The notes under the pieces are model-generated. The model saw only the letters and a program-made list of their open reading frames with translations. It was not told the origin of the DNA and did no database searches. A program made the translations under genes and the position numbers. Of a DNA stretch of 35,040 nt, positions 1,014 to 31,496 are shown piece after piece (positions within the stretch are counted from its first letter, which is position 1; every line of letters starts with the position of its first letter). Source of the DNA: Candidatus Heimdallarchaeota archaeon (lineage in GTDB: Archaea; Asgardarchaeota; Njordarchaeia; Njordarchaeales; JAMOTR01); assembly GCA_027068385.1 (NCBI GenBank), contig JAMOTR010000038.1:1-35040 (forward strand), read 5' to 3'.

Positions 1014-1059
1014 GGTTTTTTGGGAAATGAATTTTGAATGTTCGTTCATAATCAATCGT

Positions 1060-8941: not shown

Positions 8942-8954
8942 TTATGCGTCTGCG

Positions 8955-8976
8955 CGCATAATAAAAATAAATTAAG
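8955..8976. promoter_or_regulatory. A/T-rich bidirectional promoter region between the divergent nuoL and nuoA operons
   Basis: The 51-bp intergenic spacer contains cataataaaaataaattaag, which is TATA-like on both strands and lies about 20-30 nt from both start codons (8941 minus, 8993 plus). Confidence 0.4.
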
Positions 8977-8992
8977 TTCTACGAGATCAAAT

Positions 8993-9301
8993 ATGTCGCT
9001 TATCAGCATATTTGAAGCTACCTTAGCGGGCATTATCTTCCTCCTTATCCTACGGTCCGTTCATCTCATAGGAGCACCGAAACATAGAAAGGCGGACGAC
9101 GAGACTTATGAGGCGGGATATTATCCTCTAGAAGATAAGAGGCGCCTTAGGATGCAATATGTTAGGCGGATCATGACGTTCTTAGCCGCGGACGGGTTCG
9201 CGGTCTTCGCGATATTCCTACCGTACATCGCTAAGGAGGTAGCGCTTCCGATACTAGCGGGATTAGGAATAATTCTAGGAGCGACGTTTAAGGTGAGGTG
9301 A
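8993..9301 (+). CDS. nuoA: complex-I subunit A
   Basis: A 102-aa protein with hydrophobic helices at both ends, first gene of the plus-strand operon, immediately preceding nuoB. Confidence 0.65.
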   Translation: MSLISIFEATLAGIIFLLILRSVHLIGAPKHRKADDETYEAGYYPLEDKRRLRMQYVRRIMTFLAADGFAVFAIFLPYIAKEVALPILAGLGIILGATFKVR

Positions 9302-9302
9302 T

Positions 9303-9746
9303 ATGGGCGTAGGTGATCGGATTCGCGGTCACAGCCTTCGGCCCGTTCACTTCTGTACGGGATGCTGTTCGATGGAGATGCTAGCCTCAATAAGCTCGGA
9401 GTTCGACGTAGAGCGCTACGGAGTAATGCCGATGCCCACTCCTAGGCAATCGGACGTGTACTTCATCTCCGGTCTCATAACGAAGAAAGCTCTACCGATA
9501 GCGAAGCGCGTGCGGAATCGGATGCCCGAGCCTAAGCGGGTAATAGCCGTAGGCGCTTGTGCCGCGGGCGGCGGGCTATATCGGGACTCGTACTCGGTAG
9601 TAAACGATGTGCCGAAGCATTTCCCGATAAAGGTGTTCGTGCCCGGATGTCCCCCGAGGCCGGAGGCGATCATAAAGGGTCGGGTAAAGCTACGTAAGAT
9701 ACTAATGGGGGTGGCGAAGAATGGAGGAAAGAATAAGTCCGAACGA
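9303..9746 (+). CDS. nuoB: complex-I subunit B (N2 Fe-S subunit)
   Basis: Motifs CCSMEM, GACAAGGG and PGCPP (cluster N2 cysteines). SL-CGG-P and PK-CGG-VI fall on the conserved LWP and PKWVI tryptophans. In-frame CGA at 9744-9746 is followed two codons later by TAG (9750-9752). Confidence 0.9.
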
Positions 9747-10116
9747 GCTTAGGGAGAAGATCAAAGAACTCAAAGCTAAGGGGTTTAAGAGGCCCGTAAC
9801 GATCGTAGCCGTCGATCACATAGACGAGGGAGAAATAGAGCTCATATACATGCTCCACAACGTGGAGACGAACGAGGACGCGATAATACGCGTGCGCGTC
9901 CCTAGGGATAATCCTAGAGTTCCTACGGTCACCGATATATTACCGGGATTCCGGCGGCGGGAGATGGAGACGTGGGACCTCATGGGCGTGGAGTTCGAAG
10001 GCCTTCAGAAGCCTCCCGAAGAGCTCGGAATAAAGCGCTTCCTACTCCCTCACGACCGGGACGATATACCTCCGCTAAGGAAGGATTACGTTCCTCCAGC
10101 GAGAAGGAAGAGGTGA
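9721..10116 (+). CDS. nuoC: complex-I subunit C (30 kDa)
   Basis: 131 aa, with EMETWDLMGVEFEG matching the ERE.WD..G..F signature. Its stop overlaps the nuoD ATG (gTGAtg). Confidence 0.8.
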   Translation: MEERISPNELREKIKELKAKGFKRPVTIVAVDHIDEGEIELIYMLHNVETNEDAIIRVRVPRDNPRVPTVTDILPGFRRREMETWDLMGVEFEGLQKPPEELGIKRFLLPHDRDDIPPLRKDYVPPARRKR

Positions 10117-11291
10117 TGGGTATGATGGAGTTAGGATCCCGGGAGAAGGACGGTAAGGTATATTACGACTTCATGTTAAATCGGGGTCCCCAACACCCTG
10201 GATATGGCCCCGTGAGGCTTATAGTGAAGGTTAACGGGGATTATATCGAGGACGCTCGGCTCGATCCCGGATACGTCCACAGAGGCTTAGAGAAGCTTAT
10301 GGAATACCGCACGGCACTACAGAACATACCCCTAGCCGAGAGGGCGTGCTTCATCGATTCGATAAACTCTACGCGGGCGTACGTGATGGCCGTTGAAAAG
10401 CTCGTGGGAATAGAAGTGCCGGAGTACGTTGAGGTTCTACGCACGCTAGCCGGAGAACTTAACCGTATCGTGAGCCACTTAACCCGGCTCGGTATGGCCG
10501 GAGGGGCGATGAGTCAGCACACCGCGTTCATGCGGAGCATCAAGGCGCGCGAGCGCGCTTTAATAGCTCTAGAAGCCTTGACGGGAGGGCGCTACGGAAC
10601 CGAGTTCATCATACCGGGCGGTCTCACGAACGATATGCCTCAGGATCTTCCGGATATTATAGAGCGCGAGTTCAAGAAGATCGAGGAACGCCTTAAGGAC
10701 GTAGAAACCGTGCTCCTAAAGAATAGGATCTTCCAGAGCCGCTTAATAGGGGTCGGAATACTAAAGCCCGAGGAGGCTATAGAGTTAGGCGTAACGGGCC
10801 CCTCTTTACGCGGATCCGGGGTGAGGTACGACGTGAGGGAAGCGGACGGCTACGGCTATTATAAGGAGATAGACTTCGAGCCCGTGGTGGCGGAGAAGGG
10901 GGACATATACGAGATAGGCGATTGTTACGCTAGAGTTCGGGTACGCTATCAGGAAATACGGAGGAGTATGGAGATGGTGCGTAAGCTCGTTAAGATCGCA
11001 CAGAGCTTCCCGAAGAACGAGAGGAAGATACTCGCGATTCCGAAGCCTCGCGTGGCTACGCTAACGTTCGAACCCGGTGAAGCTTACGCTAGGACCGAGC
11101 GGGCACGTGGGGAGATGTTGTATTATATCGTAGCGAAGAAGAAGGGACCTTACCCCTATAGGGTAAAGATCAAGTCCCCATCCCCCACGCTCATGCAGGC
11201 GTTCCTAAAGCTCATTAAAGGCGTACGCATAGCCGACATCCCCGCTATACATCTTAGCTTAGACGAGTGCCCAGGGGATCTGGATAGGTGA
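10116..11291 (+). CDS. nuoD: complex-I subunit D (49 kDa)
   Basis: I set the start at ATG 10116, which overlaps the nuoC stop; the longer track ORF from 9972 is out-of-frame overlap with nuoC. Motifs: GPQHP, GYVHRGLEKL, GVTGPSLRGSG, GDCYAR, PYRVKIKSPS. There are 9 CGG codons, no TGG and no CGA. Confidence 0.9.
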   Translation: MGMMELGSREKDGKVYYDFMLNRGPQHPGYGPVRLIVKVNGDYIEDARLDPGYVHRGLEKLMEYRTALQNIPLAERACFIDSINSTRAYVMAVEKLVGIEVPEYVEVLRTLAGELNRIVSHLTRLGMAGGAMSQHTAFMRSIKARERALIALEALTGGRYGTEFIIPGGLTNDMPQDLPDIIEREFKKIEERLKDVETVLLKNRIFQSRLIGVGILKPEEAIELGVTGPSLRGSGVRYDVREADGYGYYKEIDFEPVVAEKGDIYEIGDCYARVRVRYQEIRRSMEMVRKLVKIAQSFPKNERKILAIPKPRVATLTFEPGEAYARTERARGEMLYYIVAKKKGPYPYRVKIKSPSPTLMQAFLKLIKGVRIADIPAIHLSLDECPGDLDR

Positions 11292-12259
11292 TGGGTATGG
11301 AGAAGCGGATGATGTTAGTGTTCTTCCCCGGTGCGACCTCGTTTATCTTATACTCTATGCTCTCTATGCGGTTAGAGAGGAAGACCTTAGCGAGGATACA
11401 CTCGAGGATAGGGCCGAAACACGCGGGACCGCGGGGAATCCTACAGACGCTCTACGACCTACTAAAGGTTCTCATCAAGCAGCTCATCATACCGAGGCGC
11501 GCGGATAAGCTCGCGTACGTAATAGTCCCCCAGCTCGCTATAGTCTTCCTAGGAGTCGCTCTCATGGCTATGCCCATACGGCCTCAGGGACCGTTCCTAG
11601 AGATTCCACACTCCCTCTTATTCGTCGCGGCCGTGTTTACGGCTATGCCCGTTATCTTCGCTGTAGCCGCGCGGTCGACTATGAACAAGTACTCTATTAT
11701 GGGCGGAGCTAGGAGCATCATATCGTTCGTGGCCTTTGAGACCGCTAAGCTCGTTACGATCGCCTCCATAGCTCGGCTCGTAGGGTCTCGGGACTTGGAG
11801 GCTATATTAGAGCGGCAGAACTCTCACGGACCCCTCGCCTTATATCTACCGCTAGCGTTTATCGTGCTCCTAATCGTCACGCTAGTAGAGACGGAGAGGC
11901 CTCCGTTCGACGCTCCCGAAGCCGAGCCTGAGGTAGCCTTCGGACTCGCTACCGAATACACGAGCGTGATGTTAGCGGTGCGCATAGCTACCGGATACGT
12001 AACGCTATACGCCTTAAGCTCTCTACTTTCGATACTCTTCTTGGGCGGATACTACGGGATCCCTATAGGCCCCATAGGAGAGAAGTCCGTGCGGTGGTTC
12101 ATCCTAAAGCTAGCGTTCGTGACGCGGCTCTTCTTCGTGCTTCGCGGAGGTCTAGCGCGCTATAGGCCTGATCAAATCGCCCGCTACGGACGGCGCATCG
12201 CGATGGTGCTAGCGTACATAAACTTACTTCGGGCCGGATATCTAGTGCTACGGAGGTGA
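11291..12259 (+). CDS. nuoH: complex-I subunit H
   Basis: Motifs LERKTLARIHSRIGP, GP-CGG-GILQ, A-CGG-STMNKY (GWASNSKY), ERPPFDAPEAEPE and RYRPDQIARYG-CGG-R (RFGWK). ATG 11291 overlaps the nuoD TGA; GTG 11288 is an alternative start. Confidence 0.9.
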   Translation: MGMEKRMMLVFFPGATSFILYSMLSMRLERKTLARIHSRIGPKHAGPRGILQTLYDLLKVLIKQLIIPRRADKLAYVIVPQLAIVFLGVALMAMPIRPQGPFLEIPHSLLFVAAVFTAMPVIFAVAARSTMNKYSIMGGARSIISFVAFETAKLVTIASIARLVGSRDLEAILERQNSHGPLALYLPLAFIVLLIVTLVETERPPFDAPEAEPEVAFGLATEYTSVMLAVRIATGYVTLYALSSLLSILFLGGYYGIPIGPIGEKSVRWFILKLAFVTRLFFVLRGGLARYRPDQIARYGRRIAMVLAYINLLRAGYLVLRR

Positions 12260-12264
12260 AGGAT

Positions 12265-12678
12265 ATGGTGTTCCGCGCGTTACTCCTATCCCTTAAGCGC
12301 TTCTTCGTGTCGAAGCGCGAGGTTACTCAGATACCCGAAGAACCGATAGAGAGGCATCCTAACGCGAGACTTCAACACACGCTAGATCCGATGAAGTGCA
12401 TCGGATGTAGGATGTGCGAACGCAACTGTCCCAACAACGCGATAACGATGGTGAAGCGGGAGGAGCTCGATAATCCTAAGAACCGCCTTAAGATCTATCC
12501 GCAGATCGACTACGACCATTGTGCCTTCTGCTCTATATGCGTCTTCGTATGCCCAACGGGGGCCTTAGGACACATAAACGTGGCTCCCGATCCCTCCGTA
12601 CCGTTCTCCGAGGATCTAATACAGACGCCTCAGAAGATGTATGAGCGGTACAAGATTAAGGAGGGGGAGAAGGTATGA
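12265..12678 (+). CDS. nuoI: complex-I subunit I (2x[4Fe-4S] ferredoxin-type)
   Basis: Two CxxCxxCxxxCP motifs (CIGCRMCERNCP, CAFCSICVFVCP). ggaggtga lies 7 nt upstream of ATG 12265. GTG 12256, overlapping the nuoH stop, is an alternative start. Confidence 0.85.
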   Translation: MVFRALLLSLKRFFVSKREVTQIPEEPIERHPNARLQHTLDPMKCIGCRMCERNCPNNAITMVKREELDNPKNRLKIYPQIDYDHCAFCSICVFVCPTGALGHINVAPDPSVPFSEDLIQTPQKMYERYKIKEGEKV

Positions 12679-13091
12679 TCGAGGAAGTCGTGCTCCTATT
12701 AGCGGCATTTTTCGCTACGCTAGCCGCTTTAAGTCGTGACGACGTATACGCTTCGTTTAGCTTGGGTACCGCTATACTCTTCGCTTCCCTATATGTACTC
12801 GATTACATCTCGACGCTAATAGGAATCATCATCTTCGCGATTTATACCGGATCCGTGGTAGCGCTCGTGTTCATGGGATACGCGGAGGAAAAGAGCGGAC
12901 TCTCGAAGCTCGTCGCCATAGCCTTACCGCTAGCGTTCGCTATAGCCGTGGCCGTATACAAGTATATCCCCGCCGCTTCCGTGGGTCATGCTGAGGTCTC
13001 GATAGATGTACTAAAGGAGCTCATCATACCTATAGCGGGAGGTCTCGCGGCCGTAATAGTTAGCTCTCAGGAGGTGAGGAATGGTGCTCGA
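12675..13091 (+). CDS. nuoJ: complex-I subunit J
   Basis: A hydrophobic protein of about 138 aa in the canonical position between nuoI and nuoK. In-frame CGA at 13089-13091 lies just after the nuoK ATG. The standard-code frame would run on to TAA 13146-13148, overlapping nuoK by 68 nt. Confidence 0.7.
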
Positions 13092-15959: not shown

Positions 15960-16982
15960 ATGGAGTCGCCTAGACCTTTAGATACCGTAAGGTATATAGA
16001 AGAGCAGAAGGCGGTGAAGCTCATAAATCAGCGTAAGCTCCCGGAGACTTTTGAATACTTTACCGCTAAGACCGTAGAGGACGTTGCTTATGCTATAAAG
16101 AACATGATCGTACGCGGTGCTCCGGCGATAGGTATCACGGCCGCTTACGGCATGAAACTATTCGCGGACACATACAAAGGAAAGGACTTCGAACACGACG
16201 CTAGGAGAGCTCTGGAATTATTGAAGCGTACTAGACCCACGGGTAAGAACCTCTTCCGGGCGCTGAACCACATAGAGAAGGCGATAGATAAGGGGCCCGA
16301 GGCCGTAATAAAAGCCGCTGATGAGGTGGTGGAGAAGGAAAAGGAATATGAGAGGCGCATAGCAGATCGGAGCCTAAAGTTCGTGGAGATGATCTCGGAG
16401 AAGCTAGGAAAGAAGGAAATCACGTTCCACACGCATTGTAACGCCGGTCGTTTAGCCACTTACGGTCTCTTCGGTACGGCTACAGCCCCGATATATGTAG
16501 CACATCGGAACGGATATCGCGTACGGGCGATCGTGGATGAAACCAGACCTGTGCTTCAAGGCGCCCGTCTCACGGCCCGGGAACTTAGCGTTGCGGGAAT
16601 AGATACCACCGTGATACCCGACACCGCTATAGGGTTAGCGTTGATGAAGGGCTTAAGCGACGTGGTCGTCGTAGGGGCCGATCGCGTGTGTAAGGATCGG
16701 TCCGTGACGAACAAGATAGGAACGTATGTGCTCGCCACGCTCGCTAAGAGGCATAACGTCCCGTTCGTCGTAGTAGCCCCTACGTCCACGTTCGACGAGT
16801 GTACCTTCGACAATCCACCGCCCATCGAGGAACGCGACGAGCGCGAGGTGCGTTACATACGTGACGTGAAGATCGTTCCGGACGGTGCGAGAGTGTTGAA
16901 CTACGCGTTCGACATCACCCCCGCTGAACTAATAAACTACGTGATAAGCGAAAAAGGGATTCACGAGGTGAACCCTATATGA
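15960..16982 (+). CDS. aIF-2B-like family isomerase (methylthioribose-1-phosphate or ribose-1,5-bisphosphate isomerase)
   Basis: Motifs VRGAPAIG, RPTGKNLF-CGG-AL (RPTAVNLFWAL), HCNAG, DETRPVLQGARLTA-CGG-EL (RLTAWEL) and NKIGTY. I cannot distinguish M1P from R15P specificity by eye. Confidence 0.8.
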   Translation: MESPRPLDTVRYIEEQKAVKLINQRKLPETFEYFTAKTVEDVAYAIKNMIVRGAPAIGITAAYGMKLFADTYKGKDFEHDARRALELLKRTRPTGKNLFRALNHIEKAIDKGPEAVIKAADEVVEKEKEYERRIADRSLKFVEMISEKLGKKEITFHTHCNAGRLATYGLFGTATAPIYVAHRNGYRVRAIVDETRPVLQGARLTARELSVAGIDTTVIPDTAIGLALMKGLSDVVVVGADRVCKDRSVTNKIGTYVLATLAKRHNVPFVVVAPTSTFDECTFDNPPPIEERDEREVRYIRDVKIVPDGARVLNYAFDITPAELINYVISEKGIHEVNPI

Positions 16983-17287
16983 TTATCACGATCATCACCA
17001 CGGTCTCATCCAAGAACGAAGCCGAAAGGATTGCGGAGATATTGTTAAAAGATCGCTTAGCCGCGTGCGTTACGATAATACCGGCTACCTCTATGTACCG
17101 GCGGAAGGGAAAGATCGCGAAGGAGGACGAGTGCGTGATCCTAATAAAGACCTCTAAGAGGCGTTATACGGAGCTCATGAAGAGGCTCAAGGAGATACAT
17201 CCATACGAGCTTCCCGAGATCCTCATACTTAAGCCCGACGCGCTAGAGGAGTACATTAAGCGGGTAGAAGAAAGCACCTCGGAGCGA
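16979..17287 (+). CDS. cutA: divalent-cation tolerance protein CutA
   Basis: SMY-CGG-CGG-KGKI matches the CutA S.YWW.G motif. Also HPYELPEI, and YIK-CGG-V matching YL.W. Ending at CGA 17285-17287 gives 102 aa, the normal CutA length. The standard-code frame would run to 17482 straight through the antisense tRNA-Ser gene. Confidence 0.85.
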
Positions 17288-17297
17288 GTTTTTGTTA

Positions 17298-17385
17298 TGG
17301 CGCCGGGGCCGGGATTCGAACCCGGGCGGGCGAGATGCCCACGGGATCTCAAATCCCGCGCCTTTCCTGGCTCGGCCACCCCGGC
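17298..17385 (-). tRNA. tRNA-Ser (anticodon UGA), CCA encoded
   Basis: The minus-strand sequence is GCCGGGGTGGCCGAGCCAGGAAAGGCGCGGGATTTGAGATCCCGTGGGCATCTCGCCCGCCCGGGTTCGAATCCCGGCCCCGGCGCCA. It has a 7-bp acceptor stem and a 5-bp anticodon stem CGGGA/TCCCG with loop TTTGAGA (anticodon TGA). It also has a long variable arm (GGGC..GCCC), the T-loop GTTCGAATC and discriminator G. Confidence 0.9.
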
Positions 17386-17979: not shown

Positions 17980-18222
17980 ATGAAGCCGGACCTCGCTAAG
18001 TTAGTGGTATGTATAAAGTGCGGCTCCTCGGATTTTGAGTTAGTACCCGTAAAGAAGGAGGGAGAAGAGATCATCGAGGGACTCATGATATGTAAGAAGT
18101 GCGGTTATACATACGCAATCGTGGATTCGATTCTACGGACAATAGACGACGAAGTGAGGAGAAAAACCCTCGAGAAATATAGGGAATTCATACCCGAAGA
18201 ACTAAAAAAGAAGGCTCGTCGA
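17980..18222 (+). CDS. Trm112-like zinc-ribbon protein
   Basis: CIKCGSS...CKKCGYTYAIVDSILRTIDDE resembles the Trm112 fold motif (C..C ... C..C..YPI.DGIP.ML). In-frame CGA at 18220-18222 gives an 80-aa product. The standard-code tail to 18309 would overlap the convergent gene. Confidence 0.45.
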
Positions 18223-19286
18223 AGGACGGGCGCCTTACCTATCGCCCCTAAGTCTACGCTCTCTTTTTTATCCCGAGGGATCACCCTAGCCCCTATAGTC
18301 TTTCTCTGAGAGAGTCCTATCGCTATAGTATCGACGATGGTCCCGGTCACCTTATAATATAATATAGGTACTACGTCGACTCCGGTCGAACATACGGCCG
18401 ACCGGGCTTTGAGCGTGTCCACCGTAAGCTTACCCTCCTCCGCGAGCCTAGCGAGGACGTGATCCTCACCGAGAGGAGTCATTACGCGGTTGTATCCTAC
18501 TAGAGGGGCGACTAATGGGTACTCCTTGATCGCCTCATTAAGCGTATAGATGTATGAAAGCATACCGTCCACGGAGGACGAAAGGTCGCTTAGTAATGCT
18601 CCGACGCTTTCCTCCTTCACACCGGGCATCGGGGCTAGGGAAACGTCTATTCCCATGTACGGTACATCTAATTTCTGAGCGATCTCGTGTATAGGGTAAG
18701 CGACCTTCGGTAGAGTGACGAATACCGCGCGCTTCACCTCCTCGTAAGAGTTGTTCTCTATAGCATCCCTTAAGTCGCTCACCCGGTTTATGGCGATCGA
18801 GAGTCCGTATGAGATAGCCGGATCGCGTATAAAGCTATAGGGTAAATATGGGGAGAACCTGGGTGGGTTCACGCCCACTAATAACCTAGCCGCTGAGACG
18901 TCGTTCTTTAGCTCTAATACTACGTCGGAAGCTTTTATCGCCTCCTCTAGACTCTCCACGGAGATGAAGGCCGTGACCCTCTCGTCGCTTCTTAACACGC
19001 TCGGTAACGTACGAGTGAGTCCGTTCACACCGAACGTGCCGAACCCTCCGAAATAGTCGAACGGGGCCTCTTCGATTATCTTTAGTATCCCCTCTAGTTC
19101 CTCCTTTGTCCTTGGCGGACTAATCGATAAGCGGACGTTGTATACCTCTATCCCAGCCTTCTCGAACGGCCTCTTTAAACGCTCTATATTAATTTTTGAG
19201 ACGAAGGCCCTGAGCCTCTCGGGTGATCTATTCGTAGGATATAGCGAGGTGTTAAAAAACACCGTGATCGTACGCACCGCAACCAT
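18219..19286 (-). CDS. DUF711/UPF0210-like protein (tentative)
   Basis: The N-terminal VRTITVFF and FGGFGTF resemble UPF0210 proteins; this is a weak by-eye call. The gene ends at a tandem CGA-CGA (18219-18221, 18216-18218). The standard-code tail to 18105 is low-complexity (RRAFFFSSSG...). Confidence 0.35.
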
Positions 19287-20806: not shown

Positions 20807-23800
20807 ATGAGTAAAAGTCCGAGCATAAATGCCACAAACAATATTTTCGAGGCCTTGTACACGGCTCTGTTTCACGACGTCGAGAAGGTGTTCAGAATAA
20901 GGAAGTACGGAGGGGTCGTTCCCACGAAAGATAAACCTAGCTTGGGAGTCGGAACGGAGGAATCAAAATTCATTAATGAAATGGGGAAGAACGCTCACCA
21001 AGTTCTTAATAGCGTTTATGGTGGACCGGGTGGGCGCATCGATACTAATGACGTACATAAAGCGTTGTCGAGCAACCCCGATCTCTTAAGGATCGTCTTC
21101 TATAGGACGAATCTAAACCCGGAAATAGGAGAGTTGAAGCCCATTTACGACGGAAGCGCCGCGGGGAGCACGAGGGGTGGACAAATTCATATCTACCATA
21201 ACAACAACCCGAGCTCCGGTAGATACGCCCAGTTAGAGATACTATCGCTTTACTCTTTAATAAACGGGACGAAGGACCTCGATCCGAGGAAGCTCGTGCA
21301 CATATATTATACCCTTAAGAAGTACGGAAATAATAAGAGGCTCTTATCGGCCGAGGTGGAGCTCGTAGGGAATCCGACCGTGGCGTATAACAACATCTAC
21401 GTCAAGGGATCCCAGGAGTACGAGGACCTCCTTAAGTATAACCCTAACGTACGGGCGAATAAGGACGTTTATCCGTTGGGACCGTTCGTGGAGCTATACA
21501 CGTACCTATACGTCTCGGACGCGTTGAGGGCCAAGGATAACGACCTAATATCGTTAAAGCCCGTGCGGTCTTACGGCTCGATATTCAAAGCGGAGGACGT
21601 ATCCGAACCTTTCACTCCCCTATCGATCCATACGACGCTCGGCGCCGCGATTCAGGCGGCCTCGATGTACTATTCGATCGACGCGAGTAACGCGTTCAAG
21701 AATTCGAAAGTCGCCTTATATCACGTCGTGTTCTCGGGTTATAAGGATCTCATATCTCGCTTGCCGTACACGTTTCACCAAGCCGAAAGTATGTATTTGA
21801 GATTCACGCGCGCGATAAACTTGATACTTTACGGCCTTCTACGCGCCCTGAGCTTAGCGATCCGGCTTAATTATCTCAACGCAGCGAACGTGAGCGATCC
21901 GGAGTTCGAATACGTCCACGATTACGTAGCCCTAATACGCTCGCCCGCGGACATGTTCATCCCGATGTTCGTAAGTAACTCAAGGGGGACGTATGTGGAC
22001 GAAAAGGAGGTGAAGAAGGTCGTGGATACGACACTCATAGACCTTAGTAAGAGGCTCGAGGAGGTTCAGATAGAGCTCGAGGCCGCGGGTGAGAGGAGGA
22101 GGACGTCGCTTTCCGTGGTCCCCAAATACATATCCCTCGTGGGGAACGTCGAGATCACGAACGCGGCCTCGTTTAGGATCAAAACTAGGGGTAAAAGTAA
22201 TTTTGTGGAGCGGAACTTGGGTGGGTTCTCGTATACCATGGTTAACCCCACGGAATACGATGAGATGCTCTTAAGGGCGCGCGTGAGGATACCTACGGTC
22301 ATAAACGCTGGGGCGATAAAGAGTAGCACGGAGTTCTTCGTCCTCAAATTATATCGCGATAAGAGCGACGTCTATCCCGCGATATACGCGTACGAGAAAG
22401 GAAAAGTCTCACAGATCACGAAGAAGTTCGACGACGGAAAGGATATCTCGGAGGTAGAAAAGTACGAACTAGTCGATATAGTAGTGATCTTATACGCTCC
22501 CGAGGCGGAGGGACCCGAGGGAATAGATTACCTAGGGATCTTCGAGAAGCGGCTAGAAGCCGCGGACAAGCTGAGGAACGACGTACAAAGGATGACGAAA
22601 AACGTCGAGCTCAAGAAGAAGAAGGAGGCCGTCGGGATCGTGGATCTATTCGTGATCCCCTCTTATAGGCCAGTAGACCTAGAACAAAAGTATAAGAGGG
22701 ACGATAAGGAGCCTTACGTACTACATCGGAGGTTCGCGTTTCCCGAGCCCGCATATGGGGTGATGCGCTTGAAGAAGTTCGATAAGATATACGTGAGCGG
22801 AATCCCTAAGGACTTCTTTAAGAATGTGAGCCCAGTCCATTACTTAGCGTTCTTAGAGGAGGCCTTAATGTATCGGGGACTAACTATTCTACCTTCCACG
22901 CTCGCCCCCTTGAACCCTACGATCATATACGTGGCTAGGGACGAAAGCTACTATCTAACGGATACAGCGGGCGACTTCTCTAGGGTAATCTCTCTCTTAA
23001 AATCGCGGGACGAGGCGCGTTATCCCGTAGAAGTAATCCTAGAGGCTACGAGCGTGAAGAAACCGATATACTACGTGAAAGCTAATACCGACGGGTTCAT
23101 AGAGCTGAGGCCCGTGAGGGCAGGGAACGACTACTTAATACCCCCGAGGGCCGTCGCGTTCTCGATGCCCATAGGACTAAAGGAGCTCGCTGAAGCCTTA
23201 ACCCGGGGGAGGAAGATCCTAGAGGAATCAAATAAGGGGAAGGTTAATCTGGGCGCTATAATAAGATACCTAAAACCTTACTCTAAGCGGTTCATCCTAG
23301 ACTTCTTCGAGAGAATTAAGGAGGAGACGAAGAAGGAGCCGGAGAACAGGAATTATACGGAGGCTATAAAAGGTGAGGAAAAGTTCGACGAGTTCCTGAA
23401 CGAGAGCCTATACATACTCACGCGCCTCGATAACTTAAGTAACGTGGGAATAGACTCTCAGAAGCTCTACGAGATCGTCGGAAAACCACTCATTAACTTC
23501 GCGTACGCATTAACGTCGAAGGACGGTGACGACCTCGCGTTCTTAAATATATTAAAGGATTTGAGCGGGGAAAAGGGTAAAAGAAAGATAGAGATTATGC
23601 TCGACATCATCGCGTCGTTCTTACTAGAGATCGAGAAATACGAGGGAGGCTCGATAAAGCTCGACGTATTAAAGTATCTCAAGAGCGCCACGCTCATAGC
23701 GAGGGACACTAAAAACTTCGACGAAGCGTTGAATTACGCGATAAAAAGGATCGAGCCGTACTATAAGCGCGATTATAAGGGACTAAAGAGGGAGCTTATG

Positions 23801-23956
23801 CGCCTTCAGAGGATACTTCTACTTACTTTAGCGATCAAGATGATGGAGGAACACGACAAGAACTTCGCGCCCGATCCCAACGGAGATAAAGACTTCGTGA
23901 AGAGGTTCCTAACACTCGCTATAGCGTCTAGACTCGCGGATGTATCTAGGAGCTAA
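20807..23956 (+). CDS. Cas10-like large subunit candidate (N-terminal HD motif, degenerate cyclase motif, helical C-terminal region)
   Basis: A 1049-aa uninterrupted ORF with 10 CGG, no TGG and no CGA. The N-terminal [15 protein letters not shown] (HD at 20873-20878) resembles the Cas10 LLHDIGK HD motif. [11 protein letters not shown] (22634-22660) sits where the GGDDLF palm motif would be, but is degenerate. The last ~250 aa are predicted helical. It lies directly upstream of Cas7- and Cas5-like genes, with a 30-nt spacer. The family assignment rests on context and short motifs only. Confidence 0.5.
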
Positions 23957-23986
23957 AGTTCTTTTTCTTTATTCATAGTTCTTCGT

Positions 23987-24814
23987 ATGTCACAACGTAG
24001 CGAAGCTCAAGAGGTTTTTGTAAAGATCAAAGGGGCGTACGTCCTTCATTTAAAACTTGAAGTCGAGAACATGCTCATTGGGGGCGTAGCTAGGTTCAAT
24101 AGATACGTACATCTCGAGACGATAAAGGACGCGAGGGGTAATCCCTATATACCCGCTTCTTCCGTTAAAGGGCGCCTTAGGATGCTTATAGAGACCTCTT
24201 ATGGACTCGCCGGAATAACCTCGCCCGACGCCTTGACGAAGAGCGCGGACGAGAGGTATACTTGGAGCAAACTCAAGGAGAGGATACCTAAGGATAAGAG
24301 GAAGGACGCATTTTGCCTCTTAGCGCTCTTCGGAGGATTAAACGACGTGGGTCCTACGAGACTAATATTTCACGATCTACGCTTCGAAGGCACCCCGGTG
24401 ACGGAGATAAAGCCGGAGAACATGGTCGATAGGTTCCGCGGAACGGCCGAGAACCCAAGGCTCGTGGAGCGTGTGAGCGGGGTGGCTAGGGGTAGGCTCT
24501 TAATATTAGACGTGGAGCCCGAAACGGAAGTAGAGGATAAAGAACTACGGGAGTCCGTCTGTCCGCACGGAATAAGGATGCTCAAAAACGGCTTTAAGCT
24601 CCTTAAGCTCTTAGGTCTCGGGCGCGGTGTGAGCAGGGGATACGGTAAGATCAAGAATATAATAATAGAGAAGATCGAGAGGATCGACGCGGGAGGGTCC
24701 GTGAGCGTAATATACGAGTATAAAGGAAGCGAAGATAACATAGAGGAGGCGTTCGACGAATTAATACAAAACATGTGTCCGGATAGGGCTCAGGAGAAGA
24801 GGGGTGACGCGTGA
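23987..24814 (+). CDS. cas7: Cas7-family RAMP protein (Csm3/Cmr4-like)
   Basis: Motifs: GNPYIPASSVKGRLRMLIE (the PyIPGSS.KG.lR RAMP signature), LALFGG, TRLIFHDLRF, EIKPENMVDRFRGTAENPRLVERV (idR.tg.a...l...E) and the C-terminal glycine-rich loop LGLGRGVSRGYGKI. Confidence 0.75.
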   Translation: MSQRSEAQEVFVKIKGAYVLHLKLEVENMLIGGVARFNRYVHLETIKDARGNPYIPASSVKGRLRMLIETSYGLAGITSPDALTKSADERYTWSKLKERIPKDKRKDAFCLLALFGGLNDVGPTRLIFHDLRFEGTPVTEIKPENMVDRFRGTAENPRLVERVSGVARGRLLILDVEPETEVEDKELRESVCPHGIRMLKNGFKLLKLLGLGRGVSRGYGKIKNIIIEKIERIDAGGSVSVIYEYKGSEDNIEEAFDELIQNMCPDRAQEKRGDA

Positions 24815-25680
24815 TGAATAAATCGAAAACTATAAAGGCGTTTATTTTGGAACCCTTAGGCCCTTTCTACGGATACATCCCCACGAGTTTAACGCTCTAT
24901 AGAGCGTTGTTAGCGCTAGAAAAGAGCGGCCTAATAGACCTTAAGGACGGCTTCTCCATCGCTGGAATCTTCGCATACGACCCTAAGAACGATCTCTTGT
25001 ACTTACCGTCGGATTCCCGGATTCTAGCGCTCAAAGACGCGACCATCGATAATTATAAGATAAACGTCCCGGAGAGCCTTTACGTTCCGTTCGAGTCCTC
25101 CATGAAGTCTTACTTTGCGCTCGTGAAGGGGAAGAACGAGTATGAGGTAAGGGTCGAATACCCCTTCTTACTCACACTTTCCGCTAGGATAAACGTCTCT
25201 CGCTCCGCGTTTACGTCGTATGGAACCGGGCGCGTAGCATATAATCGCATGTATCTATCGAGGTTTAAACGGGCGATCTTAACGGACCTAGATAAGAACA
25301 TCATAAGGCTCTTAGGCGAGTTTGGGGTCGGTAACTATAAGTCCATAGGGGGCGGGGCGTTCGAGATAATAGGCGAACGCGAGGTGGAGATAAAGCCCAT
25401 TAATGTACAAAAGAAGCTCGAAGGTTACGACCTCGAGTACTCGCCCCTCGACTTCCCCCTAAATTACGGGATCGGGAACGTGCGGGAGATGCGTACGAGG
25501 ATATTCGACGGATCCTCTAGGATTAAGATAGTGAGGTACTTAGCGGGGGGATTAATAAAGAAAGACGCCCTCAAAGACGACCGGCCTCAGGCGTTTCGGG
25601 GGAGTACGTTCCCGCGTATAAAAGGAAACGATTGTCCACGCGCCCGCTTAATAAGGGGATTCCCATTTCTAAAGAAACGA
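24814..25680 (+). CDS. cas5: Cas5-family RAMP protein (Csm4/Cmr3-like)
   Basis: ATG 24814 overlaps the cas7 TGA (TGATG). The N-terminal AFILEPLGPFYGYIPTSLTLYRALL resembles Csm4 (l.p.sp.h.G ... sDTLfsAl). Also FSIAGIFAY, LLYLPSD and the glycine-rich loop FGVGNYKSIGGGAFEI. In-frame CGA at 25678-25680 ends it 45 nt before the convergent kae1 stop; the standard frame runs to 25737 and would overlap kae1. Confidence 0.6.
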
Positions 25681-25725
25681 TCAGCACGCGCACCTATCAT
25701 CATTTTTCAGACCCGTGGAGGCTCA

Positions 25726-26733
25726 TCATCTCGGTAGAATTTCTGGTGGCGGTAGTTCAAATTCTTCCATCCTCCGTTTAGGAATCACGTAACTTTCCTC
25801 GATCTTTAGAGGCTCCATTCCCGCCTTATACATCTCTAACGCTACATACGCGATCATCGCACCGTTATCCACGGCAAGCTCCGGGGATACGATACCGTGC
25901 TTTATGTTCCGATCCTCCGCCATCTCCTCGAACATTTTCCTTAAGCGCTTGTTCCTCGCAACTCCGCCCACAAGTAGAGCCTCTTTTTTACCCGTGAACC
26001 CTAGCGCCCTCTCTAATACTTCTATTACCATAGCGAAGGCCGTCTCTTGTAGCGAATAAGCGACGTCCTCGATCGGAACTCCGGACTCTAATAATTCTAT
26101 AGCCGCCTTTAGGAGACCGCTAAAGCTTAAGTTCATGCCCTTCACGACATAAGGAAGATCGTAGTAACGCGACCCCTTCTGAGCGAAGCGTTCTATATGA
26201 GGTCCTCCTGGGAACGGTATCGTGATCCCTAAGATCCTAGCAGCCTCGCGCGCGAAGGTATCTAATAGATTCCCCAACCCTATATCAAGCGTCTCTCCGT
26301 ACACTACGTATCTTCTTCCCTCGCGACCGACCACGGCCGTGTTTCCCCCGGAGAGATACAACGCTATAGGCTCCTTAAATCCGTGCTCCCGACGCCCTAT
26401 CTCGATGTGAGCTACAGCGTGATTTACCCCGTATAGAGGCACTTCTAACACGGAGGCTAAGAATCTAGCGGCCGTAGCTACGGTCCTTAAACAAGGCCCT
26501 AGACCCGGCCCACGGGAGAAACCTATTGCTACTACGTCCGTTCCCAACGTATCGAACGCCTTCTCTACGAGCTTCGGTAACCTTTGGGCTATAAACTGAG
26601 CGGACTCGCGCGGATGTATACCTCCGGAGGGGGAAGTATATTGTTCCCTCAAGTTTAAGAGTAGCTCACCGTCTAGGCTAAAAGCCCCTACTCCGGCCGT
26701 ATGAGCGGTACCCTCAAGACCTAAAACGTACAT
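25726..26733 (-). CDS. kae1: tRNA N6-adenosine threonylcarbamoyltransferase Kae1
   Basis: ATG 26733 (MYVLGLEGTAHTAGVGAF...), HPRESAQF, YGVNHAVAHIE, LYLSGGNT, LVGGVARN and DNGAMIA. At 335 aa it is the normal Kae1 length. aaggagagg lies upstream of the ATG. Confidence 0.9.
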   Translation of the reverse strand: MYVLGLEGTAHTAGVGAFSLDGELLLNLREQYTSPSGGIHPRESAQFIAQRLPKLVEKAFDTLGTDVVAIGFSRGPGLGPCLRTVATAARFLASVLEVPLYGVNHAVAHIEIGRREHGFKEPIALYLSGGNTAVVGREGRRYVVYGETLDIGLGNLLDTFAREAARILGITIPFPGGPHIERFAQKGSRYYDLPYVVKGMNLSFSGLLKAAIELLESGVPIEDVAYSLQETAFAMVIEVLERALGFTGKKEALLVGGVARNKRLRKMFEEMAEDRNIKHGIVSPELAVDNGAMIAYVALEMYKAGMEPLKIEESYVIPKRRMEEFELPPPEILPR

Positions 26734-26742
26734 TTCAAAAAT

Positions 26743-27531
26743 TCGTTCTCCTCTCCTTCTTAGCTTCTCGTATATCTTCGGGCTCCGTACTATCATAAGT
26801 ATATTAAAGAACATGGCCTCGATCGCGAACGCGAAGGACCTCCGATCGAAGAACCCTCCGAAGGTCCGGAGGACGAAGGAGGGTATGTAGAACACGAGGG
26901 CGAGGGCGGATAAGATCCTGTAGAGCGTGACGTATCCCGCGGATCCCAGAACCCCTATAACGAACACGATCACGCCCATGAGCTGTAGGGAAGAGGCATA
27001 TGGGCCCGAGACGTGAAGCGATATCGTCGCTCCGGAGATGAAGTATCCTACGCTCGAGAGGGCTCCGAGAATTATCGGTACATAATAAGATAATAGAGCT
27101 AAGAGCGCTAATAACGTCCCTAAGAGCCGAAGACCTACCCCTACGCCTAAGACCATCTGAAGGGACTCGGTGAACCTGCCCTGGGCGATCGCTTCCTTCA
27201 ACGTAGGACCTAAGGATATCACGCGTAAGGCTAACACCGACGCGCTAATGCCGGCCCCGACCGAGATCATGAACCTAGCGGGAAACACAGCGTTCGTGAG
27301 GTATATAAGGCCTCCGATAAGGACGGAGAAGCCTCCCAAGTATGCGATGAAGTACAAGACGTTGAGTATAGTCGTCCCTTGTTCCTCCGTAATATACCCG
27401 TACGTCTTCAAATAAGCGACTATCTGAGCGTATATACCCGGATCCCCTACAGCGTTTACGAGCACCAAGATTATCCCTCCCAGGATGGCGAAGATTGGTT
27501 GAAGGATGTATTTGGGCCTTTTCACGATCAT
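26743..27531 (-). CDS. hypothetical polytopic membrane protein
   Basis: 262 codons, about 7 hydrophobic helices. It ends at in-frame CGA 26743-26745, 9 nt before the kae1 ATG. The standard-code track fuses it to Kae1 as a 601-aa ORF. Confidence 0.5.
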
Positions 27532-27562
27532 AATAATAAAAAGATGATTAAATACGATCGCG

Positions 27563-28888
27563 TCGGATATAACCCAAGCGCGTGAGTTCCCTTTCTAGCT
27601 CGCTTAACGATATCTCGGATTCTAATCCCCGTTTCTCTAGAGCGACGCGAAACTCCTCGCTTTCCCTCGCGATTTCCTCTTTCGTATGTCCATCGAGAGC
27701 CCCTTTAAACGCGTCTAGCATAGCCTTCACGCCCGCTTTGATGCCCTTTGGATGTCCCACTATCGCGCGACCGACGAGGTATATGACGTCCCTAAACCCC
27801 ATGTTTATCGCGTCATAAGCTAGTGAGGGAGTTATTCCGGATCCTATTAGCGGTATCGTCTTTCCTATAGGACCTTCGCCCGCTAAAGCGTTATAAGCGC
27901 TCCGAACTGTGTATAAGTCCTTCTTATGAGAACCTACGGGAGGAGGTATCTGTGCTATGTCTGCTCCTGAGATACGTTCGAACAGCGCTAACACGGCCGC
28001 GTTAAACCCTCTCGGACTATCTATTAGCGCGGAGAATCCGGAATTCCTAGTGTATACTGGGACGTCGAACTCCCTTACGACTTCGTTTATCTCGTCGTAA
28101 CTCGCGTACATCGAGGGAATAAGCACGCCTAACCTCTCCACGTCTAATTTTTCTAAGGCCTTAAGAACCGTGCTTAACGTCCTCTTTGGGTCCCTAGATC
28201 CTATATTTAAGAAATAGAAGACGTACTCGTTCTTCGACTTTTTAATTTCGTTGAGGATCCTCTTAGCTCTGTCTATCCTCTTCGAGTACTTCGGATCTAG
28301 GAGCTTCTCGTCGTCCGCTATCATATGAACGCCCGCTTCGGCTACGTCGCGCGCTAGCTTAGCGTATTGATCCGAGGTGAGACCTAGAGAGGGCTTCATG
28401 ATGAACCCTAAATAGGGCCCTGGGCCCCGGATCTTTCTAAGATAATCGGACCTCAAAGGACCCCCGAACCTCTTTAGTATATTCTCCGGAAACTCTATCG
28501 ATGTGATCTTTATGCTACGCACGGACGCGGAATCGAGCAGATCACCCGCGATATATACGAGTATATCGTCGAACGAAATATCTTTGGAGAGATGTACGGT
28601 AGGGTATTCTATTTCTACGATGCCTATATCGACGATGCTCTCGCCTCCATTATGATCGCTCACCACCTTCGATCCTATTGGATCGACGTGCCTCACTACG
28701 GCGCCGTATTTCTTTATGTCCTCCTTGTCGATGCCCAGAACCGAAAATATAACGTCCGTCACTCCGGCTATGCTCAAACTCTGTTCGTCCGCGAGGTGAC
28801 TAGCTATCTCATATAACTTCCCTCTATTATCGGGAGTCGTTTCGACCAAATAGCGCACTCTTATCGTACCGTTTTTCTTAATGGGCAC
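27563..28888 (-). CDS. RuBisCO large-subunit-like protein (divergent, form IV-like; non-carboxylating)
   Basis: It aligns by eye to archaeal form III RbcL. FPENILKRFGGP, YLGFIMKPSLGLTS (the KPK.G motif with the second Lys changed to Ser) and GVHMIADDEKL (DF.KDDE with the carbamylated Lys changed to Ala, GCG at 28316-28318). Also LIGSGITP, VGHPKGIKAGVKA and VALEK-CGG-G (ALEKWG). The start is tentatively GTG 28888, 9 nt after the phosphomutase CGA. The end is at CGA 27563-27565, 4 codons before TAA. Confidence 0.7.
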
Positions 28889-28897
28889 GAAAAAACA

Positions 28898-30244
28898 TCG
28901 TTTAGCTTCTTTTATTATTTCCTCGAGCTTTCTCTTAAACTCCTCCGCGCGCTCCTTAGAGCGAGCTTGAATGTATATGCGAAGCTTCCCTAATTCCGTT
29001 CCCGACTTCCTTACTAGTATCCGCTCACCGTCTCCCAACACTTTTATTCCGTCTATGAGGTCCTTCTTCCGCTTGTATTTGTGGCTCCGCTCCAGTAGTT
29101 GGTGCATGAGGCGCATATATACAATATCTATGCGGCTCGGATCTATGCGGTACGTCCTTCTTATACCGTAATACTTCGGTAACCTAGAAAGACGGTCTTC
29201 GAGACCCTCTTCGACCACCTTCGCGAGTATGCATGCCGAAAGTATACCGTCGTACCGCGCCCCATAAGAGGGTATCATATGTTTCCACGGTTCGGTGGCC
29301 ATGAGGACGTCGTTAATCATAGAGTAGACGATGTCCGGAAGGTAACCGAGCTTGTAGCGGTATACCTTTAGTCCGTATTTCTTAGCTATCTCTTCCGCTA
29401 CGTCTAGAGTATCCACCGAAAGTACCACAACGCGCCTTCCGCGACGCCTTTTAGATACCTCCTCGAGTATTAATGAGGCCGTATAGCTTTGGTCCACGAA
29501 CCTTCCCCTCGGATCTATTAAAGCTAGCCTATCACCATCGCCGTCCAGAGCCATAGCCGGCACGCCCAAACTCCTCGCTATGTTCATAGTATCCTTAAGG
29601 TTCTCCTCGCTAGGTTCGGGCATACGCCCGGGGAAGAATCCGTCCGGTTGGGCGTTCACGTCTATAACCTCGGCCCCTAGTTCCCTCAGAGCCCTCGTAG
29701 CTATCACACCAGCGGCTCCATTAGATCCATCTATAATTACCCTAATCTCCTTCTCCAACGGTTCTACAAATGAGAATAGATGCTCTAGATATTCGTCCAC
29801 GACTTGGTCGGAGATGTCCACATACTTCGGTTCAAGCCTCCGGTCGAACCTCGGTTCAGGCTCCTTCCGATAGTCCTGAAGCATATTTTCTTGTATAGAG
29901 GTAAGCTCGCGCCCGTTCACGAAGATCTTGAACCCGTTATACTCTGGGGGGTTATGGGATGCCGTAACGAGCACCCCTACACCGTTTAACTTCCCAGAAG
30001 CGAAGGCTACTACGGGATAAGGGGCGAGACCGGCATAATATACTTCCGCCCCCATCGCCCCTAAACCGGACATCAACGCACTCGCGAGCACGGGAGACGT
30101 CTTGCGGGAATCTATGCCCACGACTACTTTAGAAGCATTATCGAACGCCTTAGCGATCGTAACGCCCAACTTAAACGCCATATCTGTGGTGATGTTCTTA
30201 CCGAAGATGCCTCTAATGCCCGAAGTACCGAAACGTAGACTCAT
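28898..30244 (-). CDS. alpha-D-phosphohexomutase superfamily enzyme (phosphoglucomutase / phosphomannomutase / possible phosphopentomutase)
   Basis: ATG 30244 (MSLRFGTSGIRG). Motifs: TASHNPPEYNGFK (active-site Ser loop), ALDGDGDRLALID (Mg site) and GTELGKLRIY. Ending at CGA 28898-28900 gives 448 aa, the normal size. The track start at 30358 would overlap the divergent gene. Confidence 0.85.
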
Positions 30245-30296
30245 ATATGGAGTCGTTCGTTGTTTATCTTCAATAACATCTCGATAACAACCCATC

Positions 30297-31496
30297 ATGA
30301 ACGACGAGGTCCTTAAGCCTCTGATGGATTTAGTAGCCTTTAAGACGGTGCGGTACAACGTCGAGGATTACGAAAGGGCGGCTGATTATATCGTAAAACT
30401 CATAGAAAGGGAGATTCCGGAAGCCTCCGTAGAGGTAGTAGAGGGGATCGCTACATACGGTAAAAAGAGGAAGGTTAAGAACATCTTAGCGTACGTAGAT
30501 GCCGGCGCCGATAAGACCGTGGCTCTCGTTTCTCATTACGACGTGGTAGACGCTAAGGGTCCCCGGAGGATAAAAGTGGGAGACTCCGTGATCGAGTTTG
30601 ACCCGTTTAAGCCTACGCTCATAGGCGATCGTCTATACGGCCGCGGCGCTGCTGACGACAAGTCGGCCGTAGTAGCCTCGATATTCGCCACGAAGTACGC
30701 CTTAAACGAACTCTCTAAGAACGTCCTTCTAGTGATAGCCGCGGAAGAGGAGACGGGAGGGGAAGGAGGAATTAAGGCCGTAGCCGATAAAGTAGCGGAA
30801 CTCGCGGATGAGGTAATAGTGATCGACGGGATGTATGGCGTAATAGCTAACGGGGCTTCAGGAGTAGTACACGCGAAGGTTAAGGTATATGGGACACAGG
30901 GACACGCGGGCATGCCTTTCTTATGTAGGAACCCCACGCACGCTCTAATAAGGCTCTTGAACACCGTCCTTAACTACAATATCTTCGGAGCTTATAGCGA
31001 ACTCCCCGTTAGGAGCCACTTTAAGACCATAGCCGATCGCCTCACTATCACGAGGCTATCCGCGGGCTTAGAGTCTTATAACGTAATCTCTAGGGATGCT
31101 GAAGCCGGAATAGACTTCCGTTACGTAACCGAGGAGCCTGAAGCCGCTGAGGATATGCTCAAGCGTATCTTCTATGGAGCGGCCTCATCGTTAGGGCTCT
31201 CTATGGAGGACGTATCCGTAGAGATAATAGGGAATCACCCGAGCCGGTACATACCTCCGAACCATCCGTTCATCACGAGGTTTAAGGAGATAGCCGAGGA
31301 AGTTACGGGAGATAAGCACGTCGTCGGTGTGGAACGGGGAGGTAACGACGGCTTCATATTCGCTAGGAGAGGGATCCCCACGCTTACTTACGGCGCTATG
31401 ACCGAAGACTCGAACATACACGCCCCGCTCGAGAATCTCAGGCTAGACGTGTATGAGAAGCTCATCAAGGTCCTCACAGAGTACCTCAAGAGGTGA
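30297..31496 (+). CDS. M20-family metallopeptidase / deacylase (ArgE/DapE/LysK-like)
   Basis: Motifs SHYDVV, GRGAADDKS and AAEEETGGEGG, which is the typical M20 His/Asp/Glu metal-ligand pattern. 399 aa. I cannot assign substrate specificity. Confidence 0.75.
   Translation: MNDEVLKPLMDLVAFKTVRYNVEDYERAADYIVKLIEREIPEASVEVVEGIATYGKKRKVKNILAYVDAGADKTVALVSHYDVVDAKGPRRIKVGDSVIEFDPFKPTLIGDRLYGRGAADDKSAVVASIFATKYALNELSKNVLLVIAAEEETGGEGGIKAVADKVAELADEVIVIDGMYGVIANGASGVVHAKVKVYGTQGHAGMPFLCRNPTHALIRLLNTVLNYNIFGAYSELPVRSHFKTIADRLTITRLSAGLESYNVISRDAEAGIDFRYVTEEPEAAEDMLKRIFYGAASSLGLSMEDVSVEIIGNHPSRYIPPNHPFITRFKEIAEEVTGDKHVVGVERGGNDGFIFARRGIPTLTYGAMTEDSNIHAPLENLRLDVYEKLIKVLTEYLKR

Follow-up and report, generated by a model that had tools for sequence, protein, structure and literature searches.

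The window analysed here, the whole stretch of 35,040 nucleotides at positions 1 to 35,040 of contig JAMOTR010000038.1 (Candidatus Heimdallarchaeota archaeon, assembly GCA_027068385.1), contains on its minus strand a long open reading frame (ORF) that joins an alpha-D-phosphohexomutase to a RuBisCO-like protein (RLP). Under the standard code the ORF spans positions 27548-30358, has a TTG start and comprises 936 amino acids (aa). The two parts meet at a CGA triplet (28900-28898, codon 487 of the ORF), followed 9 nt downstream by a GTG (28888-28886); the letters of the minus strand at the junction are gaa ata ata aaa gaa gct aaa CGA tgt ttt ttc GTG ccc att aag. A first-pass annotation of the same sequence had proposed that this CGA is a stop codon dividing two complete proteins, and the coordinates it gave for the ORF, the CGA and the GTG all match the sequence. 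On the 936-aa ORF, Pfam places the PGM_PMM domains I-IV at aa 42-479, and its RuBisCO_large match covers aa 646-908. Of the NCBIfam profiles, the archaeal GlmM-type profile (Arch_GlmM, positions 4-443 of 444) aligns wholly upstream of the CGA and stops five residues before it, and the OiaX profile aligns over its full length (1-412 of 412), beginning eight residues past the GTG. The CGA falls within a gap of 11 residues between the two halves, both of which are complete, as had been claimed. Splitting the ORF at the CGA reproduces the proposed sizes, namely 448 aa for the mutase at 28898-30244, which starts with ATG, and 441 aa for the RLP at 27563-28888; the mutase orthologs in contigs L001 and L084 (see below) have 445-446 aa and the RLP ortholog has 418 aa. 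Two further in-frame CGAs are located upstream of the mutase ATG at 30244, in the intergenic region. The 936-codon ORF is most likely an artefact of translation with the standard code, concealing two neighbouring genes of ordinary size. The features of the locus are:

28898..30244, minus strand: predicted alpha-D-phosphohexomutase gene, 448 aa, from ATG 30244, ending in CGA 28900-28898
28898..28900, minus strand: CGA as putative terminator of the mutase gene; the aligned position is TGA in contig L001 and CGA in contig L084 (see below)
28889..28897, minus strand: 9-nt spacer tgTTTTTTc, whose T6 run (28895-28890) is taken to be a terminator-like signal of the archaeal oligo-T kind
28909..28920, minus strand: TATA-like box AAATAATAAAAG, rich in A/T and located 21-32 nt before the GTG, putative promoter of a leaderless RLP mRNA
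27563..28888, minus strand: predicted RLP gene of 441 aa with GTG 28888-28886 as its putative start; the CGA at its end (27565-27563) precedes TAA 27550-27548 by five codons

The mutase and the RuBisCO-like protein

The translation of the upstream gene contains the catalytic serine loop (VTASHNP), the metal loop (LDGDGDR) and the phosphate-binding loop (VRKSGTE). Pfam domains I, II and IV score above their cut-offs, domain III is weak (18.2 versus 20.7 bits), and the Arch_GlmM profile covers aa 5-443. The four-domain architecture together with the loop motifs places the predicted protein in the alpha-D-phosphohexomutase superfamily. The score against the Arch_GlmM equivalog remains below the cut-off (332 versus 439 bits), and no substrate specificity is therefore assigned.

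The downstream protein matches PF00016 with 76.9 bits (cut-off 30.1), and the OiaX profile covers its aa 9-421. Alignments to the OiaX and MtnW profiles are full-length, with scores far below every equivalog cut-off; the rubisco_III score is 121 (cut-off 497). In comparison to the form III structure 8dht, HMIADDEK stands opposite DYIKDDEN and YTRNSGF opposite HGHRAMH: Lys175 and Asp203/Glu204 are kept, Lys201 is replaced by Ala (Thr in L001) and His294 by Thr. In common with form IV RLPs (MtnW/YkrW enolase, OiaX, R. rubrum-type) and with form III RuBisCO, the protein has the overall fold signature of the large subunit, the LEKWG motif near its C-terminus, and Lys175 together with Asp203/Glu204, but it differs from all of them in its scores, far below the curated cut-offs, and in the replaced positions Lys201 and His294. 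Since these two residues are replaced, the RLP is not expected to be a carboxylase, and a bona fide RuBisCO of forms I-III, which has a carbamylatable Lys201 in a KDDE motif and the catalytic residues His294 and His327 and for which the rubisco_III score is too low, was rejected. By its sequence the downstream gene product is a divergent RLP (form IV in the broad sense) outside every named RLP subfamily.

An S-methyl-5-thioribose-1-phosphate isomerase gene (MtnA, 15960-16982, plus strand, 343.6 bits versus a cut-off of 271) is found 11 kb from the RLP gene. It hints at a role of RLP and mutase in sugar-phosphate (pentose-phosphate) or methylthioribose-type salvage, which is speculation.

No in-frame ATG, GTG or TTG is present between the CGA at 28900-28898 and the GTG at 28888. 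The GTG CCx ATT at the presumed RLP start is conserved in L001, and GTG starts are common in the window. The RLP is most probably made separately from GTG 28888-28886, and the TATA-like box at about -26 would serve its leaderless expression. The L001 counterpart of the box, AAAGGATAATC, stands at equal distance from its own GTG, and comparable A/T boxes occur about 20-35 nt before many starts in the window.

CGA and CGG in the window and in orthologous loci

Codons were counted in two sets, 32 long standard-code ORFs (11,133 codons) and 35 gene models in which CGA is treated as a stop (10,890 sense codons). In the ORFs, CGA is found in frame 26 times, whereas the two remaining frames contain it 299 and 479 times; the other codons of the Arg box are frequent (CGC 188, CGG 182, CGT 91, AGG 251, AGA 88). 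The in-frame CGAs are confined to particular places: 23 of the 26 are less than 50 codons from an ORF end, versus 263 of 800 for the other Arg-box codons (Fisher p = 1.2e-8). Those near the N-terminal ends are upstream of likely starts, those near the C-terminal ends are followed by the next standard stop 1-38 codons later, about as expected for random or non-coding sequence, and the three internal ones all mark junctions of unrelated parts (CutA/tRNA-Ser, membrane protein/Kae1 and mutase/RLP). Neither in the ORFs nor in the gene models of the window does an in-frame CGA occur inside a homology-supported coding region or a conserved domain. The gene models contain no sense CGA among their 10,890 codons (CGC 183, CGG 180, CGT 83, AGG 252, AGA 86), and they end in CGA (12), TGA (20), TAA (2) or TAG (1). 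A control set of 80 Kae1 genes from archaea with the standard code contains CGA 58 times and TGG 159 times. CAA and CAG serve as normal sense codons in the gene models (36 and 81 times, respectively); discrimination of the first codon position is thus not relaxed in general. The further gene ends referred to are:

16979..17287, plus strand: CutA gene, 102 aa, predicted to end in CGA (codon 103); the CutA profile (2-99 of 100) ends at aa 99
26743..27531, minus strand: membrane protein gene, 262 aa, predicted to end in CGA 26745-26743 (codon 263), fused to Kae1 under the standard code
25726..26733, minus strand: Kae1 gene, 335 aa, with its ATG 9 nt past the preceding CGA; arch_KAE1 profile 1-322 of 323
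18219..18222, no strand assigned: palindromic TCGA, putative shared CGA end of the convergent genes 17980-18222 (plus) and 18219-19286 (minus)

The standard-code ORF of CutA continues to 17482 and crosses the tRNA-Ser gene at 17298-17385 (minus strand). The arch_KAE1 profile begins at its own position 1, six codons after the CGA of the membrane protein. The 262-aa protein itself (26743-27531) is a lineage-specific multi-pass membrane protein without a Pfam match. The convergent pair meeting at TCGA consists of a Trm112-like gene (plus strand) and a DUF711 gene (minus strand), which overlap by 205 nt if the standard code is applied.

Signals that do not depend on translation mark the same gene ends. 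Oligo-T tracts are the usual transcription termination signal in archaea. A run of at least five T within 18 nt downstream is found for 5 of the 12 CGA ends and 9 of the 23 standard stops, versus 64 of the 10,890 sense codons (0.6%); runs of T5-T6 directly follow 14 of the 35 gene ends, about 40% for either kind of stop. The context of the mutase CGA, tgTTTTTTc, resembles TGAggtttttt and CGAggtttttt elsewhere in the window. Taken together, T-runs and TATA-like boxes suggest mostly leaderless transcripts with oligo-T termination.

A second group of such signals are RNA genes situated in the ORF tails beyond CGA, namely tRNA-Ser, tRNA-Lys and a candidate C/D-box small RNA (sRNA). The tRNAs within the window and its flanks are tRNA-Ser(UGA) and tRNA-Lys(UUU). 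The candidate sRNA at 25678-25732 (minus strand) reads A-TGATGA-GCCTCCACGGGT-CTGA-AAAA-TGATGA-TAGGTGCGCGTG-CTGA, which is the architecture of archaeal C/D-box sRNAs, and has a counterpart at about 12455-12512 in L001. The Kae1 stop codon falls partly within its C box, and at its 3' end the element borders on the CGA that closes the convergent gene. Both 12-nt guides are identical in the window and L001, whereas the flanking proteins are just 50-88% identical. Rfam at gathering thresholds matched only the tRNA and gave no match for the sRNA, which was recognised by box architecture and conservation. The ORF tail beyond CGA at 25681-25737 is conserved between the two genomes, a conservation that is explained by the sRNA on the opposite strand and is no argument for a coding function.

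The comparison with other genomes is based on contig L001 of ENA ERZ27262679, on L085, a JGI contig 99.9% identical to L001 that independently confirms its sequence, on L084 (contig CAYPVV010000062.1 of GCA_964414255.1, retrieved by a search with the membrane protein), and on the window's own contig plus flank (L002). Among 5.8 billion proteins the RLP has just one close relative, its ortholog P0121, a standalone protein of 418 aa with 53% identity (BLASTP), which is encoded on L001. This contig harbors, in syntenic order, genes for an M20 peptidase, the mutase (73% identical to that of the window), the RLP (54% by global alignment), a small protein, the membrane protein and Kae1. Its codon usage (TGG 1, CGG 66, CGA solely at gene ends or junctions) follows the same pattern. 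The aligned mutase C-termini are LERIIFSE-TGA in L001, LEEIIKEAK-CGA in the window and LEEIIKS-CGA in L084, such that a standard stop stands in L001 at the position where the first-pass annotation had expected one in relatives. The spacer between the mutase end and the conserved GTG CCx ATT measures 11 nt in L001 versus 9 nt in the window; mutase and RLP are consequently in different frames in L001, and a fusion is impossible there. In L084, which lacks the RLP, the mutase (72% identical) is followed after 13 nt, in another frame, by the membrane-protein gene. A spacer length divisible by three is therefore not kept.

The exchange is not limited to the mutase. The membrane protein ends in CGA in the window and in TGA in L001, and it is standalone in L001, L084 (TGA) and L085 (TGA). 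The Pelota gene ends in CGA in L002, with an ORF tail reaching tRNA-Lys, and in TGA in L001. Two further swaps are found in the regions L002 2518-5828 (partly past the window end) and L001 296-3550: a rhomboid and a PD-(D/E)XK nuclease-like protein are joined through CGA in L002 and separate in L001, and an acidic Cys-rich protein and the rhomboid are joined through CGA-GAA-CGA in L001 and separate in L002. CGA and TGA interchange at gene ends between orthologs.

Wider searches revealed no protein combining phosphomutase and RuBisCO domains, other than that of the window, among 348 mutase and 35 RLP/RuBisCO hits, in line with the expectation that relatives have no true fusions. A scan of genome contigs with the whole fused ORF gave no match. 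The Kae1 alignment, scanned against GTDB contigs (one genome per species), retrieved only standard-code Thermoproteota with at most 50% identity and without an orthologous junction, which were used as controls; the nearest (about 50% identical) are from Nezhaarchaeota, Methanomethylicota and Thermoprotei metagenome-assembled genomes. A scan of metagenome contigs with the RLP alignment returned one standard-code form III RuBisCO (L083) without a mutase nearby, which is uninformative.

The second unusual codon of the window is CGG. The gene models contain TGG 11 times and CGG 180 times. When CGG is translated as Trp instead of Arg, six of six domains score higher against Pfam, by 3 to 24 bits:

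AFOR_C: 394.5 bits with CGG as Arg, 418.7 bits with CGG as Trp
AFOR_N: 248.8 bits with CGG as Arg, 253.3 bits with CGG as Trp
NADHdh: 236 bits with CGG as Arg, 257 bits with CGG as Trp
Complex1_49kDa: 220 bits with CGG as Arg, 223.2 bits with CGG as Trp
Oxidored_q6: 89.2 bits with CGG as Arg, 93.4 bits with CGG as Trp
CutA1: 99.3 bits with CGG as Arg, 114.8 bits with CGG as Trp

The scores of the mutase and the RLP are likewise higher with CGG as Trp. Codon 320 of Kae1, a CGG, corresponds to Trp in 77 of 80 homologs. In the mutase, the TGG of the EPWKH motif is CGG in L001 and Trp in haloarchaeal homologs, and two CGG codons of the window (YGA-CGG-YDG and DGE-CGG-ILVR) are Trp in the same homologs. 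The ALEK-CGG-G motif of the RLP aligns with the LEKWG conserved in RuBisCOs, and TGG and CGG swap at the same positions among members of the lineage. As judged from these aligned positions, CGG encodes Trp in the lineage and has largely displaced UGG.

Explanations for the CGA gene ends

Codon statistics, profile end-points, T-runs, RNA genes in ORF tails and orthologs all support the proposal, made originally from the sequence of the window, that CGA is a stop. Very probably the locus consists of two genes divided by a CGA stop, with this uncultivated archaeon using a variant code in which CGG is Trp and CGA ends translation. Several points weigh against this interpretation. The comparison rests on three related genomes; a Shine-Dalgarno-like motif was not found before the GTG of the RLP; and F-V-P-I around the GTG is common to L001, whose caller-chosen ATG is upstream, which makes the exact RLP start less certain. 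As mutase and RLP share a frame in the window, low-level read-through to a fusion protein is also possible.

As the mechanism we favour, with less confidence than for the division itself, that CGA serves a hydrothermal-vent lineage of archaea as a true fourth stop codon, recognised by the archaeal release factor aRF1. This use would have evolved together with CGG as Trp, such that the CGR half-box mirrors UGR (Trp/stop), with UGG largely replaced. In this scenario tRNA(UCG) would first have been lost from the lineage, as is reported for relatives (bioRxiv 10.64898/2026.04.02.715157), and aRF1 would then have captured CGA alongside UGA; the two codons differ in the first base only. The mutase would terminate at CGA 28900-28898, with the T6 run after it, and the RLP (about 441 aa) would be translated separately and end at CGA 27565-27563.

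Part of this code has been described before. A recent preprint (Melnykov 2026, bioRxiv 10.64898/2026.04.02.715157) inferred CGG as Trp for two hydrothermal-vent assemblies (GCA_027068385.1, GCA_964414255.1), both assigned there to Njordarchaeales. It found no CGA in hidden Markov model domains and no tRNA(UCG) in either assembly, and it describes an unusual tRNA(CCG) without an Arg identity element. CGA as a possible stop is raised in the preprint without a test, the method being stated to be unable to infer stops. In our literature search no paper establishing CGA as a stop was found.

The strongest competing explanation, to which we assign a low probability, is that CGA is unassigned: it would have neither a tRNA nor be read by aRF1, stalled ribosomes would be freed by rescue factors, e.g. 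Pelota/ABCE1, and the proteins would still be separate. The missing tRNA(UCG) (10.64898/2026.04.02.715157) and the presence of a Pelota gene nearby agree with this. The sequence observations fit it equally well, and sequence alone cannot separate it from true termination. However, 12 of the 35 genes would require stalling and rescue in every round of synthesis. CGA and TGA exchange freely at the same positions of orthologs, as do synonymous stops, and back-up standard stops are not overrepresented right after CGA (1-38 codons). In addition, a yeast study (PMC7379694), whose title speaks of such misdecoding, connects truncated products at CGA repeats with a proposed misreading of CGA by eRF1/eRF3 and points to the resemblance between CGA and UGA.

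Decidedly less probable is an assembly error or frameshift in the T6 run. If the run had only five T, the ATG of CGATG (28898-28896) would be in the frame of the RLP (MFFVPIKK), the in-frame fusion would stem from an indel, and the mutase would end at the CGA or 12 codons later. CGATG resembles the classic stop/start overlap TGATG, and in L001 the caller-chosen ATG of the RLP overlaps the stop of the mutase, giving an N-terminus MSIIFVPI that is close to MFFVPI. Yet T5-T6 runs after stops are regular in the window, the genes stay separate in any case, and the window-wide evidence for CGA is independent of such an indel.

A genuine bifunctional fusion, with CGA as a very rare codon for Arg or another amino acid in a short K-R-C-F-F linker, we regard as very improbable. 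Both parts share one frame with only three codons between CGA and GTG, and the gene caller of the source assembly gave an 898-aa protein. Mutase and RLP are adjacent in L001 too (in two of the three genomes compared), which would suggest a functional coupling. But the L001 genes are in different frames with TGA between them, the L084 mutase is alone yet ends at CGA, no second two-domain protein is among the hits, and CGA never occurs inside a conserved domain. The T6 terminator-like run would also have to be placed inside the linker.

Owing to C-to-U RNA editing, CGG was at one time taken for a Trp codon in plant mitochondria. Editing of CGA to UGA and of CGG to UGG in the mRNA under a standard code would cover both codons with one mechanism, but is hardly credible, as editing that is confined to the reading frame and affects about 1.7% of all codons has no known precedent and the tRNA(CCG) lacking an Arg identity element (10.64898/2026.04.02.715157) speaks against it. 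A frame-blind variant was rejected: Kae1 NCG codons before A or G keep Thr (79 of 80), Pro (80 of 80) and Ala at conserved columns, where the residue that editing would produce is practically absent. CGA as Trp, as in Absconditabacterales, was rejected as well, since it explains neither the gene-end positions nor the TGA equivalents in orthologs. The reading of CGA as a stop in a variant code is retained in what follows.

Related codes, neighbouring genes and implications

Sense codons that became stops are known from organelles, namely AGA/AGG in vertebrate mitochondria and, in the mitochondria of Scenedesmus and Thraustochytrium, UCA and UUA, respectively. As in the window, a standard sense codon ends genes in these cases and is absent from coding positions. 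The organellar cases concern tiny genomes with few genes and bacterial-type mitochondrial release factors, whereas here a free-living cell with an archaeal aRF1 would use the codon in 12 of 35 genes. To our knowledge, the change from sense to stop is known in organelles only and none has been established for a free-living organism, which agrees with our literature search; if true, the present case would be, as far as we know, the first such reassignment outside organellar genomes.

The lineage code of the preprint (10.64898/2026.04.02.715157) agrees with the window in a G+C content of about 50%, in CGG being dominant and standing at conserved Trp positions, and in the absence of CGA from domains. 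The second assembly considered there, GCA_964414255.1, carries the orthologous mutase-membrane protein-Kae1 locus (L084), with a Kae1 76% identical to that of the window, which stems from a different member of the lineage; of these two loci, that of the window alone has the RLP gene. The remark on CGA in the preprint reduces the novelty of the finding. It is a suggestion there; the present locus and its orthologs supply the positional and comparative evidence that the preprint lacked. A screen with Codetta (PMC8629427) reported CGA and CGG as Trp in Absconditabacterales and CGG reassignments in Clostridia. The change in Absconditabacterales resembles that in the window, being within the CGN Arg box with CGG as Trp, but those genomes are AT-rich and CGA is a sense codon (Trp), whereas the G+C content of the window is about 51% and CGA is terminator-like. 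The misreading of CGA proposed for yeast (PMC7379694) is an error of low efficiency that concerns a rare Arg codon and involves no reassignment, and it provides a plausible route to capture by aRF1.

Several neighbouring genes were noted in addition. Positions 20807-25680 (plus strand) encode a 1049-aa protein without a family match, a Csm3/Cas7-like RAMP protein (23987-24814) and a third protein (24811-25680), which has no family match in the window and whose L001 counterpart has a RAMPs Pfam annotation. The genes of this region also flank Kae1 in L001, and judged from their matches they may constitute a divergent type III CRISPR-Cas effector module. A tungsten-type aldehyde:ferredoxin oxidoreductase (1027-2952, plus strand) adjoins a 510-aa protein (3054-4586, plus strand) with a C-terminal HDIG domain as its only match, and a complex-I-like Nuo gene set is located at 4595-13091.

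For the annotation of the lineage, standard gene calling would fuse or extend about one third of the genes, and in about 1.7% of residues standard translation gives Arg instead of Trp. Within the 35 kb of the window and the adjoining 5 kb of the contig this would amount to three false fusions (mutase-RLP, membrane protein-Kae1 and rhomboid-nuclease) and many C-termini that are too long. As Njordarchaeales are discussed in connection with the origin of eukaryotes, correct proteomes matter for phylogenomics. If CGA is indeed a stop codon, cellular genomes are able to enlarge their set of stops, and the lineage would provide a natural system for studying how release factors of the aRF1/eRF1 type discriminate the first codon base.

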